In this document: piece by piece, positions 335-31,803 of the stretch
Layout: every line of letters begins with the position of its first letter
Position numbering within the stretch: position 1 is the first letter of the stretch
Source: a virus
Taxonomy: Duplodnaviria > Caudoviricetes
Length of the DNA stretch: 64,000 nt
Strand: one strand, 5' to 3'
IMG/VR virus record: IMGVR_UViG_3300001594_000003
Coordinates: 64,001-128,000 of that record
Notes under the pieces: generated by a model
What the model saw: the letters and a program-made list of their open reading frames with translations, nothing else
Told to the model about the DNA's origin: nothing
Database searches by the model: none
Translations under genes and position numbers: made by a program

Positions 335-1195
335 ATGAAACGGCTTTTGGCATCCTTGTCGCTAATTTATGTCATAACGGTAAGCGCCCAAAGCCTTCTG
401 GTTGTCCAATCCGCTCAGGTCCATGATCTGTACGGAAACTCGATTGTGACAGCCCTTCTGGAAACTGAAGGAATTGAGCAGGTGGATGTTTTCCACGCTC
501 GTTTGTTCACCCATGATTCGTCCGAGTATTCTCGCGCAAACCTCAAACGTGTGCTAGCTGCTCACGTCGAGAAAGCGAAGCCGGCCGAAATCCTGTTTTT
601 GGGTGAGCCTGTTATCGATGTTGGAGTTCCGTTTAAATACACTCCGATACTTGTTGGATCGAAATCGTTTAACACCACTGCACTGACAGCGGCGCGCGAC
701 TACGATCCAAAGATGAACAAAGTATACATCATTTCAGGTCCTTCGCATGTCGCTCAATTGCGACAAGCAAACCTACAAACATATATGGATGGATTCGACG
801 TTGAGACCTTCACTGTCTCAACTGTCTTGGATTTCCAAAAGCGCCTCTTGTCGATTCAGGACGAACCGAAAGGCATCATTCTGCTAAATGCGTTCACGTT
901 GTTGGATGAGTGGCAGCAGGATGTTGGCTATGCCGAGCTTGAGAAGATTCTAGTATCAGTCAACAAGAAACATTTGGATGTGGGCCTGTGCCGTAAACGG
1001 TTCAACACTGCACTTGCGGTAGGCCCAACGCCGAGAGAAGCTGCTGAATTGGCTTCGTCTTCATATCACGTTGCTGAGAATGAACTTCCACACATAAGTT
1101 CGTGTGCAAATCTGAGGAGGCTTAGTGGTAAATGGTTACCTGTTTACCGTAAGTCCCAAGGAAAATTCGACATTGTAGTAGGTGGATATGACTAA
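335..1195 (+). CDS. Secreted protein resembling a type I periplasmic-binding / ABC-substrate-binding-like sensor domain
   Basis: Signal peptide MKRLLASLSLIYVITVSAQS; alpha/beta pattern LLVVQS..KPAEILFLG..AARDYDPKMNKVYIISG..GIILLNAF. Confidence 0.55.
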   Translation: MKRLLASLSLIYVITVSAQSLLVVQSAQVHDLYGNSIVTALLETEGIEQVDVFHARLFTHDSSEYSRANLKRVLAAHVEKAKPAEILFLGEPVIDVGVPFKYTPILVGSKSFNTTALTAARDYDPKMNKVYIISGPSHVAQLRQANLQTYMDGFDVETFTVSTVLDFQKRLLSIQDEPKGIILLNAFTLLDEWQQDVGYAELEKILVSVNKKHLDVGLCRKRFNTALAVGPTPREAAELASSSYHVAENELPHISSCANLRRLSGKWLPVYRKSQGKFDIVVGGYD

Positions 1196-1469
1196 CATGC
1201 ACTCGAACGTTTCGAGATTCGTTCTCCTAGCGCTACTTGTAATAGTTTTGTACATCTTCTGGACGTACAGCTACAAGGCGCCTGGCCGTGAGTCCGTAAT
1301 CTACACTCGCATGGATTGCATTCAAAGCGTATGTGTGTACAACAAAACCACGGGCGAGTTGTGTGCAGTTCGTAAGCCTACGGTTTCCGAGTTGATCATT
1401 GAAACTGATCCAAACAACTACAATGTTCGTAACATACGAGTGATACCAAGCGATGATTTATGCCAATGA
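1188..1469 (+). CDS. Small single-pass membrane protein, Cys-containing soluble domain
   Basis: TM FVLLALLVIVLYIFWTY; 4 Cys; overlaps upstream stop. Confidence 0.7.
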   Translation: MTNMHSNVSRFVLLALLVIVLYIFWTYSYKAPGRESVIYTRMDCIQSVCVYNKTTGELCAVRKPTVSELIIETDPNNYNVRNIRVIPSDDLCQ

Positions 1470-1478
1470 GGCTGCTCA

Positions 1479-2027
1479 ATGGATGCCATCCAAACCATTT
1501 TCAGTAGCCCTCTGCCAGTTGCCATATCCGCTGTAATTGCAGTAGCGTGCCTGGCCGGTTACTGGTTTTTTGTTATACCTATGCTTGAAGAGGTAAAGAC
1601 CCTCCGGGAGACCAACGTCGAACTCCAGAGCAAACTGGGCGGCGAGTTTGAACAACAGAAAGCGAGCATACAGCGATTCATGCAGGAAGTGATGACCGGT
1701 GTGCAGAATCAGCAGAATGTTGGTGAACTCGTGTCCGTAATAAACGCTCTGAGGACAACGGTCGAACAACAAACGAACGCACTGAACAGTACACTTGTTC
1801 GTATACTAGACGACATTCAGGAATCGATAGCGCGTCTAAGTCCAGTGATATCCAATCTTTCGGAAACTTCTGCTCGTAAAGACGATGAGATTCGGCGTGA
1901 GGTAGAACGTCTTGGTAGGTTGCTTGAGTCGCTTACTAGGACAGTCGCTGATATAAGCGACAAGCAAAGCCAAGTTGCCGGCGTCCTAACAGGAATGTCC
2001 ATCGCGTCTATGAACAGGAGTCTGTAG
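1479..2027 (+). CDS. N-terminal TM + long coiled-coil protein
   Basis: TM PVAISAVIAVACLAGYWFFVI then heptad-rich helix; GAGG RBS. Confidence 0.75.
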   Translation: MDAIQTIFSSPLPVAISAVIAVACLAGYWFFVIPMLEEVKTLRETNVELQSKLGGEFEQQKASIQRFMQEVMTGVQNQQNVGELVSVINALRTTVEQQTNALNSTLVRILDDIQESIARLSPVISNLSETSARKDDEIRREVERLGRLLESLTRTVADISDKQSQVAGVLTGMSIASMNRSL

Positions 2028-2037
2028 GAATTTAGAC

Positions 2038-2829
2038 ATGGCCTATGTGCTGAATAACATACGGTTTCGCTCCGTCAGCTCTAAAGCCCTTCAAGGGTAC
2101 TACGATTCCAAGTCCTTCATTTTGAATGAGTTGATTGACGAGCGAAAACAATTTAGCCAGGTCGCAAGAGAGGTGCTGCTGTTATTCTTCAACAGCTATT
2201 CCGATTGGGCGTCCAAGGTGGAGTATCTCTTACTTAATCGGAACGTGTTGGATGACTCGGATATCCAGATTATCTTTCAACGTTTCGGTGAAGTAGTAGA
2301 AAGCAACAAACACATTTTCCGCGTGCATAGCGATGTGTTTAATGCTGATTTCATGCGGGTCTGGGGTAAGGTTCATTACCATATACCGCAAAACTTCAAA
2401 CGCAAAGTGCGCCGTGTGTCGGGCAAATCGCAATTGGAAGCGTACCCGCTCATTATAGATGCGTTGGTTAAAGCGTTGCAGTCAACGTTGTTTGAACTGT
2501 ACGAGGTCGATTGTCTGCTAGGCTCTAATTTAGTAGAGAAGCGTGTAACGACTAACGCATCGAACATGGATAACCTCATAACCTATATAGACGAAGGTGA
2601 CCTAGCGTACTATCGCAACACGGGAGTCTTCATCATTAAGGAGAGGTTGAACTACTATCTGGACGAAGTAATCCTACCGGGAATACAAGTTCCGATCGTG
2701 GTGAAAAACTACACGGAAGAAAAGATTGAATTGCAAAACGGCGTGGTTGTAGGCGATCAGCCATTGGCTAAACTGCTTACCGATATTCAAGAAAACCCAC
2801 GTATCAAAATTGTTGAAGTCCTTTCCTAA
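2038..2829 (+). CDS. Hypothetical cytoplasmic protein
   Basis: 263 aa ORF, AGGA RBS, tight operon spacing. Confidence 0.75.
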   Translation: MAYVLNNIRFRSVSSKALQGYYDSKSFILNELIDERKQFSQVAREVLLLFFNSYSDWASKVEYLLLNRNVLDDSDIQIIFQRFGEVVESNKHIFRVHSDVFNADFMRVWGKVHYHIPQNFKRKVRRVSGKSQLEAYPLIIDALVKALQSTLFELYEVDCLLGSNLVEKRVTTNASNMDNLITYIDEGDLAYYRNTGVFIIKERLNYYLDEVILPGIQVPIVVKNYTEEKIELQNGVVVGDQPLAKLLTDIQENPRIKIVEVLS

Positions 2830-2844
2830 ACGGAGAAGCATATA

Positions 2845-4584
2845 ATGCTCAAGAATGGTAACATTACGCTGCTCGGCGAAATTCGTGGTTTGAAGCCGCA
2901 ACGTCTCGCCGCCGACCCCATCGAAGCCGATCTGCGTCAAGGCCTCGTTTGGGTAAACACAACTGAAAAGGCTATGAAGTGGTACGACGGTGAAGTGATC
3001 AACCGTATCGCTACCGGTGACAGCCTCGACGAGTACATGCGTCTCGATGGCGCTGAAATGACTGGTCCGCTGCTGCTCTCCGGTGATGCTACCGAAGCTC
3101 TGCACGCTGTACCGTTCAGCCAACTGAACACCCTGCTGGAAGGCAAACAGGACGATATCACTGGTGCTGCCAGCACTGTCGTCACTGCTGATCTGACCGC
3201 AAGCTCCGTACTCGTTTCTGACGAAAACGGCAAGATCGCTGCTGGCACCATCAACGTCGCTACTCTGGGTTATCTGGACGGCGTCACCAGCAACGTTCAA
3301 ACCCAGCTGGACTCCAAGCAAGACGACCTCGGCTATGTGCCTGTTGATCGCGAAGGCGACACTCTGACCGGCGACCTGAACTTTAGCAACTCCGCTACTG
3401 TTACTGGTCTGCGTGCTCCTGTCAGCCAGACTGACGCTGTTCGTCTGATGGACCTGGACAACCTGGCTTCTGGCCTGGACTTCCAGCCGGACGTTCTCGC
3501 TGTTCAGCTGGACGATACTCTGGTCCCGTTCTCGCCGACCGAAGAAGTGATCGATCCTGATACTCAGGAAGTCACCACTCCTGCCTTCGATCTGCCTGAC
3601 TCGGTCGTTCGCTACATCGTAACTGACGCTTCCACCCTGAACGCTGCTTTCGGTACCATCGAAGGTCTGGAAGATGGCGATATCATCCAGCGTAATGCTG
3701 ACGATACCTTCAGCGTTGTCTACGACGTGAGCGAGCGTGGTCCTGGCGTACTGGCTTGGGATCGCGGTACTGCCAAGTTCATGAAGTACAACGGTACCAT
3801 CTGGAACGAGCACGGCGGCCTGAGCGGTGTTACTGCTGCTGACGGTCTGCGCAAAGAAGCCAACACCATCATGGTTGACTTCGGTGGTGGTGTTGAAGCA
3901 TCGGCTGAAGGTGCGCTGACTCTGGCTGTCGATGACGGTCTGGCTCTCGTCGATCCGACTACTGGCCTGGCTTCGACCGGTGCTGACGCTATCCTCGCTC
4001 TGGTTGCTCGCGCTACCGGCGGCCTGACTGTCACTGCTGAAGGTGTTGGCGTTGCCGCTGAAGGTATCGATGCTGACAAGCTGGCTGCCGCTGCTTTCGG
4101 TAACGGCCTGACTGGCGGTGCTGGTACTGCTGTTAGCGTTCGTGCTAATGCTGATGCCTCCATCGTCGTTGACGCTGACGGCGTTCGCGTTGGTGACCTG
4201 AGCGATACCTACGTTGCTCGCACTGGTGACACTTCGGTCGATGGTCAGCTTGCTGTTCCTGCTCCGACTGCTGAAACCAGCGCTACCAACAAGCTGTACG
4301 TTGATACCGCTGTTACTGGCGTAAGCGATGCCGTTACTGCTCTGTCTGACAACATCGCTCAGAGCCGCATGGTGTTCGATGGTACCGTCGGTGATGCAAT
4401 GGATACCTACTCCATTCAGCACAACTTCGGCGACAAGTACGTTCAAGTCACCGTGTATGACGAGAACGACAACGAAATCATGCCGGATACCATCCAGCTG
4501 ATCGACGCCAACAACGTCCAAGTTACCCTCGCCATCGCTCAGCGCATTCGCGTAGTGATCACCGGTCGCAAGGTCGCTGTTTAA
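2845..4584 (+). CDS. Abundant virion structural / fibre-like protein
   Basis: GGAG RBS, strongly biased codons, G/A/D/T-rich, motifs MTGPLLLSGD, DAVRLMDLD, ATNKLYVD, C-terminal IQHNFG domain. Confidence 0.8.
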   Translation: MLKNGNITLLGEIRGLKPQRLAADPIEADLRQGLVWVNTTEKAMKWYDGEVINRIATGDSLDEYMRLDGAEMTGPLLLSGDATEALHAVPFSQLNTLLEGKQDDITGAASTVVTADLTASSVLVSDENGKIAAGTINVATLGYLDGVTSNVQTQLDSKQDDLGYVPVDREGDTLTGDLNFSNSATVTGLRAPVSQTDAVRLMDLDNLASGLDFQPDVLAVQLDDTLVPFSPTEEVIDPDTQEVTTPAFDLPDSVVRYIVTDASTLNAAFGTIEGLEDGDIIQRNADDTFSVVYDVSERGPGVLAWDRGTAKFMKYNGTIWNEHGGLSGVTAADGLRKEANTIMVDFGGGVEASAEGALTLAVDDGLALVDPTTGLASTGADAILALVARATGGLTVTAEGVGVAAEGIDADKLAAAAFGNGLTGGAGTAVSVRANADASIVVDADGVRVGDLSDTYVARTGDTSVDGQLAVPAPTAETSATNKLYVDTAVTGVSDAVTALSDNIAQSRMVFDGTVGDAMDTYSIQHNFGDKYVQVTVYDENDNEIMPDTIQLIDANNVQVTLAIAQRIRVVITGRKVAV

Positions 4585-4603: not shown

Positions 4604-5203
4604 ATGAAAATCAACGGTACGCTTGATCTGATGGGAAACTACCTGAAGAACCTTGCGTTTGAACCCGTTGACACTTGGCCGCTCGAACCCAAGCCGGGCA
4701 CGTTCATCTTCAAGTCTAAGCGGATTTACATCTGTTTGGAAATACAAGATGGTGTGCCGGCTTGGCTCCCTATCAGCACCGATCTTCACACCCATGTTCA
4801 TGACCAGTTTGTTGCGCAGACCGAATGGGTCATCGAGCACAACCTGCAAACGGCTGGGTGTGTTGTTCAAGTGCTTAGTGGGGATAATCGAGCGATTGAG
4901 TTCGACGAGGTTGACTTCGAGTTCAACAGGGCAACCATCCGATTCGCTGAGCCTCAAGCTGGTCGTGTCATACTTGTTATGGGTGCGACAGAAGGGATTC
5001 CGCGTCCTGTAGTAGCTTTCGAGCAGGCATTCACGGACAGTGCTACTTGGGTAGTTAACCACAAGCTAGGTTACGCCCCGATCATTCGTTGCTTCGTTGG
5101 CAACGTTGAAGTGCAGCCTGTTTCCATCATCCATAACGATACGTTCACCTCTGCTACCGTTACGTTCAACAGTCCGCTGTCGGGCAAGGTACGGTGCATA
5201 TGA
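4604..5203 (+). CDS. Virion protein with two W.I.HNL beta repeats
   Basis: WVIEHNLQ and WVVNHKLG repeats. Confidence 0.75.
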   Translation: MKINGTLDLMGNYLKNLAFEPVDTWPLEPKPGTFIFKSKRIYICLEIQDGVPAWLPISTDLHTHVHDQFVAQTEWVIEHNLQTAGCVVQVLSGDNRAIEFDEVDFEFNRATIRFAEPQAGRVILVMGATEGIPRPVVAFEQAFTDSATWVVNHKLGYAPIIRCFVGNVEVQPVSIIHNDTFTSATVTFNSPLSGKVRCI

Positions 5204-5412
5204 GTGGTCGCTATCAGCACGAACAACCTACGCCGAGTGATCTTTGGGTCATTCAGCACAATCTTTCCACTCGCGCTCCGATCATTGACGCTTATGTTGA
5301 TTACGATGGTAGTCAGCAGAAAATGCTTCCTAAAGAAGTACGCGCTATCGATCTGAACACCTGCCATCTTGTATGGTCTGTTCCGCGCACTGGCCGAGCT
5401 GGGGTAATCTGA
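5200..5412 (+). CDS. Small single W.I.HNL-domain virion protein
   Basis: ATGA overlap; LWVIQHNLS...VPRTGRAGVI. Confidence 0.75.
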   Translation: MSGRYQHEQPTPSDLWVIQHNLSTRAPIIDAYVDYDGSQQKMLPKEVRAIDLNTCHLVWSVPRTGRAGVI

Positions 5413-26266: not shown

Positions 26267-28315
26267 ATGAAACCAGAAGAACTCCTTGCTGCTATGCAGC
26301 CACTAGCGGAAGCCGTAGCAAAGGCGACCGCGGAATACACGAAAGAAGTTGCTTCTTATCGTGAGGAACTAGCACAGACCAAGGAAGAACTTCAACGAGT
26401 ACGGACGCAACTTGAAGAACTAGCAGGTGCAACACCAAAGCCGACACCCGAGCAACCAAAGCCAGAGCCTACTCCTGAACCGGAGCCAACACCTAAGCCT
26501 GATGTACCTGCGACCGGTGCCATCAAGATCAATGATTTCGATGGCGGTGATTGGCTGAACGGTGTCTGGATCAAGGATGATACCCGCCGGGTATCCATAC
26601 CGCAAACTGACCTGTTCACAGTTGGTGATGAAGTAACACTAGCTGATGGTGAACCCCGTCGCGTCAAAGTTGTTGAAGACGTTGGCGATAACATCAGTCT
26701 GGAACTCACTGGCGGCAAGATCGACCCTAACGTTGCAGGTGCACCCAACAACGTAACTAAGGTAGCAGACGGTGAGCCGGATGATCTGCCTGAGCCGGGA
26801 CCTGAGCAGCCAGCTCCAATACCAGAAGTACCAAAGCCTGAGCCGAAGCCGGACGTTGAAGGGTTTACCTCCAGCATCAACAACTTCACGGATGACAAGT
26901 ATTGGGATCGCGGTATCTGGCGCGGCGATAAGGCTGGTATCAGTATCACTAACTCGGCAGACAATCGTAAGCACTTCGTAGAGGGTGCTCCGGTTAAACT
27001 TGCCACTGGCGAGATTCGTCGAGTAACGTGGGCTCAAGAGGTTGGTGACAACATCAGCCTTTTCTTGGAAGGTACGACCTTGGATGCTTCTAAGGTCGGC
27101 TCACCCAACAAGATCGTATTGGCAACTGACGAAGCACCTCAGCCAGACCCAAAGCCGACAGAGCCGGAACCTACACCTACTCCAGCACCTACGCCGATCC
27201 CACCTGTTTCTGGTGTTGACGCTCAACTGCCTGCGTTCGGTCTAAACTTGGGTGGTCTGGGTAATAACCCTTGGCTTGCAGCTATCAATGGGCCGGATGG
27301 GGTTCGAGGCGATACACACTACTCGATCACCAAAGAGCCGCACATTGCGTGCTATGCGAAACACTTGAACGGTAAGCCGTGGATTGCGCGTCTGCCTATC
27401 GCTGCTGAGTACCTGATCACCAAGGATGGAGACAAGCTCAACCAGCGCTATGTGAACGACATTCTGGGTGTGATGAACATCGTCCACAAGTACGGCGGTA
27501 AAGTGCTGTTGGATATGCACAACTACTACCGCTTCTGGAAGAAAGTACCCAGCCCTGTTGCGGGTCGTGATATGAAGAACCACAACGACCACCTTGCAAA
27601 GGGTTCGGCTGTGTGGACTGTCATCAACGAGCCGGATTGTCCTGTCACCAACAAAGGATTCGCGCAACTGTGGGTAGACATTCTGATGGGCCCAATAGGT
27701 AAGCATCCTGCGATGTTTATGGCTGGGCTTGTGAATGAACCACACAACCGCGGCACCGACAAGGTTGATATCAACTCGAAGTGGCCTGTATGTGCTCAAC
27801 TGTGCGTCAACGAAATCCGTAAGGTCAACAAGACTATCTGGATTACAGTTGCGGGCAACTTCTACAGCAGCGCCAAGATGTGGACCAGCGTCAGCAAGGA
27901 CCTGCACAAGATCACTGATCCGCAAGACAAGCTGATCTTTGAAGCTCACCAGTACATGGACAAGCAGGGTAATGGTGGCGGGGCGTGGAACTCCCACACC
28001 GATCCGGTTGCTGCCGATCAAGGTACCAAGGACTGGGCAGGGTATGCCGCCTGGGCTATAGAGAAGAACGTGCGTGGTATGTGCGGTGAAGTAGGTGGTC
28101 CCGCTACTGCAGGTCAGTATTTGACTGCTGTTCGCCGCTTGTGTGATCTTATGGCATCACACCGTATGCCAGTAGTGTTTTGGATGGGCGGTACTGGCCA
28201 GAACGACAGCTACGCTAACGGTATGAACACCAAGGCAGGCGTACTCAAACCAAATGCTGCGCCTCTGATGGAGCGCATCGGACGCACGTTCCCATCGTAC
28301 GGGCCGAAGAAGTAA
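26267..28315 (+). CDS. GH5 (cellulase-family) glycoside hydrolase with coiled-coil N-terminus, Pro-Glu linkers and two repeated putative binding domains
   Basis: LDMHNY, LVNEPH (acid/base Glu), FEAHQY, CGEVG (nucleophile Glu); repeat IN(D/N)F..W..G(V/I)W...VGDNISL.L.G. Confidence 0.85.
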   Translation: MKPEELLAAMQPLAEAVAKATAEYTKEVASYREELAQTKEELQRVRTQLEELAGATPKPTPEQPKPEPTPEPEPTPKPDVPATGAIKINDFDGGDWLNGVWIKDDTRRVSIPQTDLFTVGDEVTLADGEPRRVKVVEDVGDNISLELTGGKIDPNVAGAPNNVTKVADGEPDDLPEPGPEQPAPIPEVPKPEPKPDVEGFTSSINNFTDDKYWDRGIWRGDKAGISITNSADNRKHFVEGAPVKLATGEIRRVTWAQEVGDNISLFLEGTTLDASKVGSPNKIVLATDEAPQPDPKPTEPEPTPTPAPTPIPPVSGVDAQLPAFGLNLGGLGNNPWLAAINGPDGVRGDTHYSITKEPHIACYAKHLNGKPWIARLPIAAEYLITKDGDKLNQRYVNDILGVMNIVHKYGGKVLLDMHNYYRFWKKVPSPVAGRDMKNHNDHLAKGSAVWTVINEPDCPVTNKGFAQLWVDILMGPIGKHPAMFMAGLVNEPHNRGTDKVDINSKWPVCAQLCVNEIRKVNKTIWITVAGNFYSSAKMWTSVSKDLHKITDPQDKLIFEAHQYMDKQGNGGGAWNSHTDPVAADQGTKDWAGYAAWAIEKNVRGMCGEVGGPATAGQYLTAVRRLCDLMASHRMPVVFWMGGTGQNDSYANGMNTKAGVLKPNAAPLMERIGRTFPSYGPKK

Positions 28316-29057: not shown

Positions 29058-29179
29058 GTCAAAAACCGAGAAGAACCAGATCAAGGAAGATATGAGAACT
29101 ATCCAGAATCGACTGGCTAGATCGCTGCTGCGTGCTGTACGCAAACGAGCAGAGCACCAGAATTACAAGGAGATTTGAA

Positions 29180-29467
29180 ATGGAATCGTGGATCAGCAAA
29201 GCGCTTGGATACGCCAAGTATGCAGGTGCTGCCGTCTTAGCGTTAGGGGTTGCAGTTCTACTTCGCAAACAGCCAGTGGCTAAACCGAAGGAGAAGATCG
29301 AGAAGGGACCTGATATGAAGGTCGCTTATGACAATGCCGAGCAACTCGACAAGAAAGAAGAAGTAACCAAAGAACAGCACGGCAAAATAGAAGAAGTGCT
29401 GCAACCAAAGCCAATCACAAACAAACCTCTGCGCGATGCAGTAGATGACTGGAATCGCGACGCTTGA
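29180..29467 (+). CDS. N-terminal TM protein, i-spanin-like
   Basis: AAGGAG RBS; TM YAGAAVLALGVAVLL then charged helix. Confidence 0.55.
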   Translation: MESWISKALGYAKYAGAAVLALGVAVLLRKQPVAKPKEKIEKGPDMKVAYDNAEQLDKKEEVTKEQHGKIEEVLQPKPITNKPLRDAVDDWNRDA

Positions 29468-29480
29468 CTTGGAGACTAAC

Positions 29481-29879
29481 ATGGAACTTCTGGCAGATGC
29501 AGTAAAAAATCTGTTGGGCGTTGAACCATCCATGGCACTCACATACTTGCTATGTGTACTCATCGGTGTAGGTATCAACTGGGCTAAATCCAGCAGGGAA
29601 GCCAACATTAGCCTTATGTCGTACTGGACACGATATCCGATTCGTTCGCAAACGGCTATCATCGGTACAATCTCTGCTTACCTATTCACGGTTATCACTG
29701 ATCCTGAATCAGGCAAGCTGACGTATATCGCTATCGGGTATGCGTGCGACAACCTGCTCAACAAGGTCCCCGTAGAGGGCAAAGCTGCGGATATCATCGC
29801 ACGGCAAGAAGCCGAAGTGATTGTTCAAGAGCAGCGCATAAGGGAATTGACCCAATCGCTCCCACAACAAGGTAGTTAA
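29481..29879 (+). CDS. Multi-TM protein, holin candidate
   Basis: GGAG RBS; 2-3 hydrophobic segments, charged C-tail; lysis-like context. Confidence 0.55.
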   Translation: MELLADAVKNLLGVEPSMALTYLLCVLIGVGINWAKSSREANISLMSYWTRYPIRSQTAIIGTISAYLFTVITDPESGKLTYIAIGYACDNLLNKVPVEGKAADIIARQEAEVIVQEQRIRELTQSLPQQGS

Positions 29880-29881
29880 GC

Positions 29882-30346
29882 ATGAAACTGTTCGCGTTGT
29901 TACTCTCGGTGTTCCTAGTTGGGTGTTCGAGCAACCTACCGAAGCCTGAAATCAGTGATCGCTACTCCAAGCTGGAGACTATGGATCACCTGACTGCTAA
30001 AGCCGCAGTGTTGCCTGCTGTGCCTCAGATCCGCGTAACGCCTATTGACGGCAAAGAGTACGCGGTGCTGGATGCAGACGGCATGAACCAGCTCAATCAG
30101 TTCAGGCAAGCGGCAAAGCAGAACACCGAGGCAGTTGCGCTTTTGATCGAGGCACAGAACGGGCTAATAGATCAGCGCAACCTCATGTTGCAGAATCTTC
30201 GGCTAGAGGAATCCCGCTCCAACTTCTTCGCTGAGAAGTACATGGAGTCGGAGAACTTGCGACGCGAACAGTACGACCAATTTCAAATGGAGCTGATCAT
30301 CCACAAGGTGACGCTCCTTCTATTCGGCGCATTGGTGGTGTTCTGA
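29882..30346 (+). CDS. Lipoprotein with C-terminal TM, spanin-like
   Basis: Lipobox LVGC; C-terminal LIIHKVTLLLFGALVVF. Confidence 0.65.
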   Translation: MKLFALLLSVFLVGCSSNLPKPEISDRYSKLETMDHLTAKAAVLPAVPQIRVTPIDGKEYAVLDADGMNQLNQFRQAAKQNTEAVALLIEAQNGLIDQRNLMLQNLRLEESRSNFFAEKYMESENLRREQYDQFQMELIIHKVTLLLFGALVVF

Positions 30347-30810
30347 TGGACGAAACGATAAAGATCGGCAAGAACTTCACACTCGCCGACGTACAGTTTA
30401 ACGAGATTGCAGTGCGTCTTGGTATGAGCAACGACGTGGTCGATGATCAAGTCATATCGAACGCGCGGCGTCTCGCCAAGAACGTACTGGACCCACTGAT
30501 TGAACAGTTCGGTCATGTGTTCATCACATCGTGGTATCGCAACCAGAATCTGGAGCGCGAGTACAGCCGCAACACCTTTGCTCGCTGGTGTATCGACAAT
30601 CGATTGCCGATCCGAGACGAAGCATGGCAGCAGTACATAGACCAGAAACAGCATCACACTGGTTGTGCCGTGACTATCCGCGCAAAGGACAATGACGAAC
30701 TGTTCGACTACATCAAGGACAATCTGGAGTTCGATACGCTAATGCACAAGAAGCATTGGATCAGTGTCAGCTTCACCCAGAATAACCAAAAACGGGCTAT
30801 TGGTAGATGA
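30346..30810 (+). CDS. Peptidase M15A-fold protein, apparently degenerate
   Basis: IGKNFTLAD..LAKNVLDPL..ITSWYR..QHHTGCAVT..WISVS. Confidence 0.7.
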   Translation: MDETIKIGKNFTLADVQFNEIAVRLGMSNDVVDDQVISNARRLAKNVLDPLIEQFGHVFITSWYRNQNLEREYSRNTFARWCIDNRLPIRDEAWQQYIDQKQHHTGCAVTIRAKDNDELFDYIKDNLEFDTLMHKKHWISVSFTQNNQKRAIGR

Positions 30811-31112
30811 TCATTACTCTTTCTATGGCGCTGCCTTCCCACCATCAAATAGGTGATGAAGTATTTCTACATCCGAATCCGTGGCGCCAAACAACAGAGC
30901 GCAACTCGGGTTTTCTGTGTCGTGTCGATAAGGTAAACTTTAGATCGGGAAAGGTAACGTATGATCTGGCGCTTCACGTAGTGGAAGGTGATGGCGAAGG
31001 TAATCTCGAATCAAGATATTACGATGCCATCACTATAAAGGACGTCGATAGCTCGTTCGTTTACTCGATTAAAGATTTGGAAGAAAAGGACCATACGCAT
31101 GAAAGTTCGTAA
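30807..31112 (+). CDS. Hypothetical protein
   Basis: ATGA coupling, 101 aa. Confidence 0.7.
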   Translation: MIITLSMALPSHHQIGDEVFLHPNPWRQTTERNSGFLCRVDKVNFRSGKVTYDLALHVVEGDGEGNLESRYYDAITIKDVDSSFVYSIKDLEEKDHTHESS

Positions 31113-31803
31113 GCAGAGCGGCTGCGTAGTCTTTCGCTACAACCGCAACTTCGATTACGAGATACTGCTGGTCAAGTCCAGTGATGGTAAAGAGTGGGTA
31201 TTTCCGAAGGGTGGTGTAGAGTCTGATCTGACTGCGAAAGAGTCTGCCGCCAAAGAAGTGTATGAGGAAGCAGGCGTAGCGGGTAACATCCTGCAGACAC
31301 TCGGCAAGTACGAGTACAAGAAGAAGGGTCGCGACCAGAAAGTCACCATGTACTCGATGCTGTACACGCACGACACACCAGACTGGCCGGAGAAAGGACT
31401 ACGCAAGCGCAAGTGGTTCAGTTTTAAAGAAGCGCAGAAGAAACTACCGAAGATACTGCGTCCATTCCTGAAGGAGTTGAAGAACGGGAATGCGTTGGCG
31501 TTGAGTGCAAGCAATACGCTATCGCACTTAGCTGACCATTTCCGTGAACTGCCCGTGCTCAGCCAACACCCGTCAGAGGTTACCGTGGACGACGCAGACA
31601 ACTGCGTGTACATATCGGTATCGTTACCTAACGGCGATTTGCGATTGCAGATTGAGGAATGGGAACAGCACCCACTGTCACAAGCTCTTACCGTACACTA
31701 TGAGTTTTCGGGCGAAGACGAGAATCACGGCCACTTCAAGCGCAGCTCGCTGGATAGAGTGGTTGGTCACGTTGCACGTATCGTCGGAAAGTATGTAAGT
31801 TAG
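31099..31803 (+). CDS. Nudix hydrolase with C-terminal extension
   Basis: WVFPKGGVESDLTAKESAAKEVYEEAGV Nudix box. Confidence 0.9.
   Translation: MKVRKQSGCVVFRYNRNFDYEILLVKSSDGKEWVFPKGGVESDLTAKESAAKEVYEEAGVAGNILQTLGKYEYKKKGRDQKVTMYSMLYTHDTPDWPEKGLRKRKWFSFKEAQKKLPKILRPFLKELKNGNALALSASNTLSHLADHFRELPVLSQHPSEVTVDDADNCVYISVSLPNGDLRLQIEEWEQHPLSQALTVHYEFSGEDENHGHFKRSSLDRVVGHVARIVGKYVS

Follow-up and report, generated by a model that had tools for sequence, protein, structure and literature searches.

In LuxP-LuxQ, TorT-TorS and ChvE-VirA, a free-standing periplasmic binding protein serves a receptor, and the known systems of this type end in a histidine kinase. The sensing parts known from phages include arbitrium peptides, quorum-sensing receptors of borrowed origin and the T4 antiholin RI, a helical protein of ~97 residues. 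T4 lysis inhibition brings together the periplasmic RI, which has a cleavable signal peptide, the bitopic holin T and the cytoplasmic RIII (PMC8385771, PMC11413866). In this study, we analyzed a 64,000-nucleotide stretch of viral DNA (the window; bases 64001-128000 of a contig from a virus, which is 148,991 bp long and ~56% complete), and focused on a block of four plus-strand open reading frames (ORFs), here called genes 1-4, which lie amid fiber and tail genes at positions 335-2829. The closest cultured relative of the window's phage is the jumbo phage Pseudomonas phage PaBG (genus Baikalvirus). The reading that we favor, tentatively and at less than even confidence, is that the block encodes a late-expressed, non-virion and envelope-spanning module that may act as a binding-protein-dependent relay.

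The block is real and conserved, and chance ORFs were excluded because the PaBG orthologs are 54-77% identical and all four genes were present in 20 IMG/VR loci. A preliminary description of this DNA had pictured four tightly packed genes amid virion genes, encoding a signal-peptide protein, a small Cys-containing transmembrane protein, a transmembrane protein with a coiled coil and a cytoplasmic protein, and all of these features were reproduced in our analysis. Spacing within the block and to its neighbors was 5-15 nucleotides, or the genes overlapped. The upstream neighbor is a homolog of PaBG gp252 with a C-terminal fiber domain, and the downstream neighbors include homologs of gp257 and gp261, both of which were detected in PaBG virions by mass spectrometry (PMC7412058 Table 1). 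Inside the block, neither promoter-like sites (2 vs 5.2 expected) nor terminator-like sites (4 vs 5.2 expected) were in excess, and the block is most simply read as sharing one late transcript with the neighboring genes. Its GC content (0.44-0.49) was lower than that of the adjoining abundant virion genes (0.50-0.56); despite this difference, a foreign insert was rejected as the source of the block because it is conserved across the whole phage group. Gene 2 has three start options (GTG 1182, ATG 1188 and ATG 1197), among which ATG 1197 appears likelier from its Shine-Dalgarno spacing, the best of the three.

First, gene 1 has the features expected of an exported binding protein. Its N-terminus consists of a basic n-region, a hydrophobic core (residues 4-26) and a VSA/QS site directly before the first beta-strand, and a matching layout of n-region, h-region and AxA site directly before strand beta-1 was observed in at least 35 of the 45 gene 1 family representatives. 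On the basis of this canonical signal peptide, the product of gene 1 in the window is predicted to be exported. An AlphaFold2 model built from 41 sequences reached a predicted local distance difference test score (pLDDT) of 93.1 and a predicted template modelling score (pTM) of 0.88. Foldseek matched this model to 438 PDB chains at E<=1e-3, and all matches listed were type I periplasmic-binding proteins or LacI-family cores. In VIA-align, the highest Z scores were 15.8 to 3lft (244 residues, 3.7 A), 14.9 to CD0873 (6hni) and 14.7 to 3lkv. These three alignments covered 241-244 residues at 3.7-4.0 A, and such PF04392-type proteins exceeded the LacI cores by 2-3 Z units. When 48,161 chains were scanned independently of Foldseek, the ranking was unchanged, and the matches included 2x7x (Z 11.4), the domain with which a hybrid two-component system (BT1754) senses in the periplasm. 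The type I fold was found throughout the best 50 matches of both the Foldseek-based and the Foldseek-independent searches, in which the model was aligned over residues 17-284. PF04392 clusters were also closest to gene 1 by ESM Atlas sequence features (score 0.91; 194-197 features in common), and the structural search of the same atlas returned free PF04392 proteins first (TM score 0.75), followed by N-terminal domains of histidine kinases (TM score 0.66-0.71). Thus, the earlier proposals that 335-1195 would model as a periplasmic-binding fold and that it resembles the input domains of histidine kinases both held up. At the level of the fold, the model indicates that gene 1 is a type I periplasmic-binding protein spanning both lobes, and that its nearest counterparts are PF04392-type solute binders. 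Seven of the ten most conserved positions (Q25, Y33, G90, N185, F187, G217 and G230) are located where strands end on their C-terminal side or immediately beyond; such positions line the cleft between the lobes in this fold, and would be expected to do so in gene 1.

The likeness of gene 1 to PF04392 (ABC_sub_bind) is confined to the fold and language-model level, and membership of this family at the sequence level was rejected. Gene 1 had no Pfam match at E<=0.1, profile searching of PDB sequences yielded no binding protein, and a PF04392 search of the whole contig gave nothing above the curated cut-off of 25.9 bits, although it did produce matches in 5 of the 14 control genomes. The PF04392 binders 3lft (Trp-bound, from S. 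pneumoniae), CD0873 (6hni/6hnj) and 3lkv share with gene 1 the two-lobe type I fold and export, but gene 1 is just 10-12% identical to them and lacks a neighboring ABC permease or ATPase. When 1.84 billion cluster representatives of any length were searched with HMMER, only 45 relatives of gene 1 were found, which were 108-321 residues long and included no fused form; the family appears to be restricted to phages. No relatives of its distant members P0057 and P0061 were found in IMG/VR.

Second, genes 2 and 3 were predicted to encode membrane proteins with complementary orientations. Gene 2 has a single transmembrane segment followed by a domain of ~60 residues with the Cys pattern C-x4-C ... 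C ... C, and all four Cys residues were invariant in 16 of 16 distinct sequences, including unannotated ORFs of Lu11 and Erwinia phage Y3. In the published annotations of these two phages the ortholog of gene 2 is missing, and the apparent intergenic gaps are in fact coding. The N-terminal flank of the transmembrane segment is basic and essentially devoid of acidic residues and the C-terminal flank is acidic, from which we infer an N-in/C-out protein with a disulfide-bonded periplasmic domain. Gene 3 begins with an acidic tail carrying an SSPxP motif, and continues with a single transmembrane segment, a coiled coil of ~140 residues and a conserved C-terminal motif, ISDKQSQVxG..G. No Lys or Arg was present in the N-terminal flank of its transmembrane segment in 17 of 18 sequences, whereas the C-terminal flank had 1-4 of them; because of this bias, the positive-inside rule predicts an N-out/C-in protein whose coiled coil would be cytoplasmic. 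The invariant residues of gene 3 map to the membrane helix, in its inner half (G27, Y28, F30, F31, V32 and P34), and to the C-terminal motif (QSQVxG..G), and this location suggests that gene 3 makes specific contacts and is more than a plain anchor. Matches of gene 3 to DUF948, TraP, ZorA, Mce, LmuB and JetC were dismissed as generic coiled-coil similarity. Gene 3 scored 24.8 bits against PF06103 (DUF948), below the gathering threshold of 37.2, and among 20 gene 3 relatives this family matched seven (best E 3.5e-8), beside unrelated coiled-coil families. HisKA was matched in just two of the same 20 relatives, at E 0.004 and amid many generic coiled-coil matches.

Third, gene 4 encodes a soluble protein, with no transmembrane segment and no signal peptide, whose fold appears to be an orphan. 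In its AlphaFold2 model (pLDDT 93.3, pTM 0.89), residues 1-161 form a helical bundle and residues 180-263 an alpha/beta domain. Conservation within the block is highest for gene 4 (77% identical to its PaBG ortholog, vs 54-70% for genes 1-3), which is also more conserved than the flanking fiber proteins. Foldseek found no match for it in PDB (best E 0.08), the wide VIA search gave Z scores of at most 8.7 that were all generic helical matches, and BFVD returned solely four members of its own family. ESM Atlas, Pfam, NCBIfam, PADLOC and a PDB profile search likewise gave no match to gene 4, and a search among longer proteins revealed no fusion of gene 4, although this negative is weak evidence. 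None of genes 1-4 produced anything above threshold in Pfam, NCBIfam or PADLOC.

The fold of gene 1 and its nearest neighbors, which are ABC solute binders, could also be taken to mean that gene 1 alone is an auxiliary metabolic gene, a solute binder feeding an ABC importer of the host, and that the other three genes are unrelated neighbors. The label 'ABC transporter' that gene 4 carries in RefSeq and PHROG would point in the same direction, but this label was rejected, since gene 4 has no ABC_tran match and no fold of an ABC ATPase or permease. Moreover, the block contains no permease, no ATPase and no polytopic membrane protein, gene 1 is too far diverged to be recognized by the PF04392 model that control genomes pass, its co-occurrence with genes 2-4 is strict, and forms of gene 1 that lack a signal peptide exist. 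We therefore consider an auxiliary metabolic role extremely unlikely. An ABC importer composed of genes 1 and 4 was also discarded, as neither a permease nor an ATPase with Walker A and ABC-signature motifs lies alongside them.

In the envelope-spanning relay that we tentatively favor, the four proteins are predicted to form a chain across the inner membrane. We infer all of the protein contacts, the ligand binding and the output in the following model. The gene 1 protein would capture a small ligand in the periplasm and dock on the ectodomain of gene 2. The resulting change would pass from gene 2 to gene 3 via contacts between their membrane helices, and the cytoplasmic coiled coil of gene 3 would carry it to the gene 4 protein, which may then modulate a late event; lysis timing and fiber or tail maturation are candidates. 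Such an arrangement resembles LuxP-LuxQ, TorT-TorS and ChvE-VirA in that a type I periplasmic binding protein is combined with a membrane protein bearing a domain in the periplasm, and both ChvE (3urm) and 2x7x, the fused form represented by the BT1754 sensor domain, were among the structural matches of gene 1. It differs from these systems in that the membrane part of the block is distributed over two bitopic proteins and the partner in the cytoplasm adopts an orphan fold.

Analysis of the distribution of the block revealed that all four genes are present in the same order, followed by a gene 5-family fiber protein, in PaBG, Lu11 and 20 IMG/VR contigs, and the four are also found in this order in Y3, AD1 and Yoloswag. 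Order and tight coupling were strict in all of these, down to ~25-35% identity, and the blocks of PaBG, Lu11, Y3, AD1 and Yoloswag have the same order, sizes and flanking fiber genes as that of the window. Their genes carry the annotations hypothetical, 'membrane protein' or 'ABC transporter', and gene 1 lacks the signal peptide in the enterobacterial versions. In tblastn searches, genes 1 and 4 had matches with matching spacing in dozens of Erwinia/Dickeya jumbo phages, and genes 2 and 3 had matches solely in the jumbo group. No homolog was found in XacN1. In Vibrio phages (~190 kb), a protein with the architecture of gene 3 (weak similarity, E ~1e-3) is encoded directly upstream of a gene 4 homolog, and in the Ralstonia phage RsoM2USA gene 4 is followed by a protein with the gene 3 architecture. 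Because Vibrio and Ralstonia phages retain just this pair, genes 3 and 4 look like an older core, to which genes 1 and 2, the fastest-evolving members of the block, would have been added in the PaBG/Lu11/Erwinia-Dickeya group. The suggestion that the genes co-occur in relatives was thus borne out for that whole group; treating the four as one module is appropriate within it, but genes 3 and 4 occur elsewhere without genes 1 and 2, and gene 4 occurs alone in Alcaligenes phage Afa-NA1. The Afa-NA1 record (PV550095.1) is 78 kb long and described as a complete genome, and its fiber genes, gene 4 and gene 5 are syntenic with those of 260-kb Erwinia jumbo phages; this record may be a fragment or a reduced relative.

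Several observations weigh against the relay. First, searches of Pfam, NCBIfam and PADLOC as well as structure searches found no output domain in genes 3 and 4 (kinase, cyclase, methyl-accepting chemotaxis protein (MCP) signalling, GGDEF or DNA-binding), and a cytoplasmic transmitter of the HisKA/HATPase, MCP-signalling or GGDEF type in either gene was rejected on the basis of Pfam and NCBIfam. The transmembrane sensing system suggested by the preliminary description is partly supported: it fits the predicted topology, with one periplasmic protein, two membrane proteins of opposite orientation and one cytoplasmic protein, but no recognizable output domain was found. Second, the topologies of genes 2 and 3 were predicted from charge bias only. 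Third, gene 1 of Y3, AD1 and Yoloswag begins at strand beta-1 and has no signal peptide, and the features of genes 2-4 are unchanged in these phages; because of the missing signal peptide, a role as a periplasmic receptor cannot hold as stated in these clades. Fourth, Vibrio and Ralstonia phages keep only the gene 3-like gene and gene 4, and in Afa-NA1 gene 4 lies between the gp252-like gene and gene 5, while the entire record lacks genes 1-3. Finally, the block is always located within the fiber gene cluster.

The last of these points belongs to the strongest rival explanation, in which genes 3 and 4, with genes 1 and 2 as accessories, provide a membrane-anchored chaperone or scaffold for folding, trimerizing or attaching the neighboring fibers, above all the product of gene 5. 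Such a morphogenetic platform would account for a block that is read as co-transcribed with fiber genes, for the presence of a gene 5-family protein immediately 3' of gene 4 in every PaBG-like and Lu11-like locus despite a size range of 330-906 residues, and for the retention of the gp252-like gene, gene 4 and gene 5 in Afa-NA1 without genes 1-3. The better conservation of gene 4 relative to the flanking fibers is also in its favor, as is the location of the RsoM2USA pair ~3 kb from ORF438, a virion protein by mass spectrometry. However, genes for fiber chaperones are usually found downstream of the client gene, whereas gene 4 precedes gene 5. In addition, the pair of genes 3 and 4 in Vibrio and Ralstonia phages has no gene 5 homolog within 7 kb, and gene 4 is unlike any known chaperone in Foldseek, VIA and BFVD searches. 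Tailed virions assemble in the cytoplasm, which leaves no obvious role in assembly for a binding protein that is exported or for a four-Cys domain in the periplasm. Taken together, we regard this explanation as unlikely, if less so than the other rivals.

For the same reason, that is, because genes 1-3 specify exported or membrane proteins and assembly takes place in the cytoplasm, the products of these genes are unlikely to be virion parts. None of the products of genes 1-4 was among the PaBG virion bands, a shallow proteome of 14 Coomassie bands (PMC7412058); the virion proteome of RsoM2USA, likewise shallow, comprises 10 bands.

Proximity to fiber genes is also a feature of some exclusion systems: T5 Llp and Cor are exclusion or masking proteins encoded beside receptor-binding genes. 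By analogy, the envelope proteins of the block could block the entry of other phages or prevent the loss of progeny on debris. A periplasmic or membrane location, the adjoining fiber genes and the rapid evolution of genes 1 and 2 would all suit superinfection exclusion or receptor masking. On the other hand, the core of the block is kept across Pseudomonas, Erwinia and Dickeya phages and partly in those of Vibrio and Ralstonia, unlike host-specific exclusion genes; it appears to be expressed with the late structural genes; and its most conserved members, genes 3 and 4, are predicted to be cytoplasmic. Exclusion or masking thus seems very unlikely to us.

The preliminary description had also linked the block to the timing of lysis, and nothing that we found ties it to lysis: a separate cassette with the endolysin lies 27 kb away (Table 1). 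In this cassette, the 144-residue membrane protein is a homolog of Lu11 gp258, and the lipobox protein has an LVGC lipobox, a central coiled coil, a C-terminal transmembrane segment and an Rz-like PHROG match, the layout of a unimolecular spanin. The endolysin matches phrog_894, and its PaBG counterpart bears the annotation peptidase M15A. Gene 4 and the endolysin are 27.5 kb apart in the window and 26 kb apart in PaBG, and are separated by 2.3 kb in Lu11 and by 2.4 kb in HRDY3; the short distance in the Lu11 clade fits a situation in which both sets of genes simply lie near the end of the late operon.

A direct lysis accessory would consist of antiholin-like or spanin-like helpers that are functionally similar to T4 RI/T/RIII and do not sense a small ligand. 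Like the T4 set, the block combines phage-encoded exported, bitopic and cytoplasmic proteins, and this formal parallel to the T4 layout (PMC8385771, PMC11413866) is joined by the envelope location and the late expression of the block, by its position 2.3-2.4 kb upstream of the endolysin in Lu11 and HRDY3, near the end of the same rightward late block in Lu11, and by the slow lysis of PaBG, which has a latent period of 80 min and takes more than 3 h to complete lysis (PMC7412058). Nevertheless, the block and the T4 proteins have no sequence or family similarity, gene 1 is a 286-residue protein with a Venus-flytrap fold, and the block does not adjoin the genes for the membrane proteins and the endolysin, which is 26-27.5 kb away in the window and in PaBG and is accompanied there by the transmembrane protein, the gp258 homolog and the lipobox/Rz-like protein. 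Genes 1-4 gave no lysis-category PHROG match at E<=0.01 and no such match in Pfam, and no holin-like or spanin-like genes were found around the gene 3-4 pair in Vibrio and Ralstonia phages. Gene 3, with its N-terminal transmembrane segment and coiled coil, has the look of an i-spanin, as in the spanins lambda Rz/Rz1 and unimolecular T1 gp11; however, it contains no embedded plus-strand ORF and has no adjacent lipoprotein gene, its charge bias predicts the opposite orientation, and the phage has its own lipobox protein. Gene 2 could not supply the partner, having no lipobox and its first Cys at residue 46, after the transmembrane segment. Identification of gene 3 as part of a two-component spanin was accordingly rejected, given the missing lipoprotein partner, its location outside the lysis cassette and its predicted orientation. 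Overall, a lysis accessory is quite unlikely.

The positions of the block and of other features of the window, together with the orthologous loci, are listed in Table 1.

Table 1. Features of the window and orthologs of genes 1-4 in cultured phages
Feature	Position or gene names	Strand	Description
Gene 1	335-1195	+	286 residues; predicted exported protein with type I periplasmic-binding (Venus-flytrap) fold; orthologs PaBG gp253, Lu11 gp252
Signal peptide of gene 1	335-391	+	Residues 1-19; cleavage-type site VSA/QS, putative cleavage
Gene 2	1182-1469	+	95 residues; small bitopic protein, N-terminal transmembrane segment and four-Cys domain; ortholog PaBG gp254
Gene 3	1479-2027	+	182 residues; N-terminal transmembrane anchor and coiled coil; orthologs PaBG gp255, Lu11 gp253
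Gene 4	2038-2829	+	263 residues; soluble, two domains; orthologs PaBG gp256, Lu11 gp254
Gene 5-family neighbor (outside the block)	2845-4584	+	Fiber-like virion protein, homolog of PaBG gp257
Shared fiber module of ~70 residues	3-329, 4300-4584, 4604-5203, 5194-5412		Homologs of gp252, gp257, gp258 and gp259
682-residue protein	26267-28315		Candidate exopolysaccharide depolymerase
Lysis cassette	29132-30810		111-residue transmembrane protein, 144-residue membrane protein, 154-residue lipobox protein, 154-residue endolysin homolog
Lipobox protein of the cassette	29882-30346		Layout of a unimolecular spanin
234-residue ORF	31099-31803		NUDIX-like by eye only; just 3' of the endolysin
Gene 2 ortholog in Lu11	L002 5502-5786		Transmembrane segment and four Cys; unannotated
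Gene 2 ortholog in Y3	L003 7887-8171	-	Transmembrane segment and four Cys; unannotated
PaBG	gp253-gp256		Orthologs of genes 1-4
Lu11	gp252, unannotated ORF, gp253, gp254		Orthologs of genes 1-4
Y3	Y3_101, unannotated ORF, Y3_100, Y3_099		Orthologs of genes 1-4
AD1	AD1_099-096		Orthologs of genes 1-4
Yoloswag	gp92-89		Orthologs of genes 1-4

Some additional observations were made on the genes around the block. The ~70-residue module (phrog_21918/24148-type) is repeated at the ends of four adjacent fiber-like proteins, the homologs of gp252, gp257, gp258 and gp259. One such fiber-module family carries the PHROG label 'HNH endonuclease', apparently a mis-annotation that has also entered RefSeq records. 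Upstream of the lysis cassette, the 682-residue protein contains two repeated N-terminal modules, linkers rich in Pro and Glu and, at its C-terminus, a domain of the GH5 cellulase family (PF00150, E 3.8e-25). Its candidacy as a depolymerase fits the expanding haloes reported for PaBG plaques (PMC7412058). As for the NUDIX-like ORF beside the endolysin, a NUDIX hydrolase gene (Lu11_0262) is also present a few kb from the endolysin in Lu11.

The PaBG paper, one paper on the comparative genomics of jumbo phages and a 2026 review make no mention of this module or of such a periplasmic protein. What would be new here is the combination, in a lytic phage, of a binding-protein-linked membrane system, a membrane part that is split and a cytoplasmic partner of orphan fold. 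Going one step further, it is possible, though less likely than not, that jumbo phages of the PaBG/Lu11 group encode a periplasm-to-cytoplasm ligand-sensing pathway of their own, made up of a free Venus-flytrap receptor, a membrane relay split over two proteins and a new type of cytoplasmic effector, which would time a late decision of a strictly lytic virus, for instance lysis or fiber maturation, by an extracytoplasmic chemical cue, and that the gene 3-4 pair represents an older and more widespread membrane-signalling core. If the relay that we favor is true, it would be a virus-encoded and binding-protein-dependent route across the membrane with a new output protein, unlike the known sensing parts of phages, and would offer a testable handle on the timing of late events in large lytic phages as well as a role for a protein family that is mislabelled 'ABC transporter' in RefSeq. 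If the block is instead a platform for fiber assembly, a membrane-anchored and partly periplasmic assembly aid would still be unusual for a tailed phage. In either case, a whole group of giant phages whose hosts are plant, human and environmental bacteria has conserved the module.

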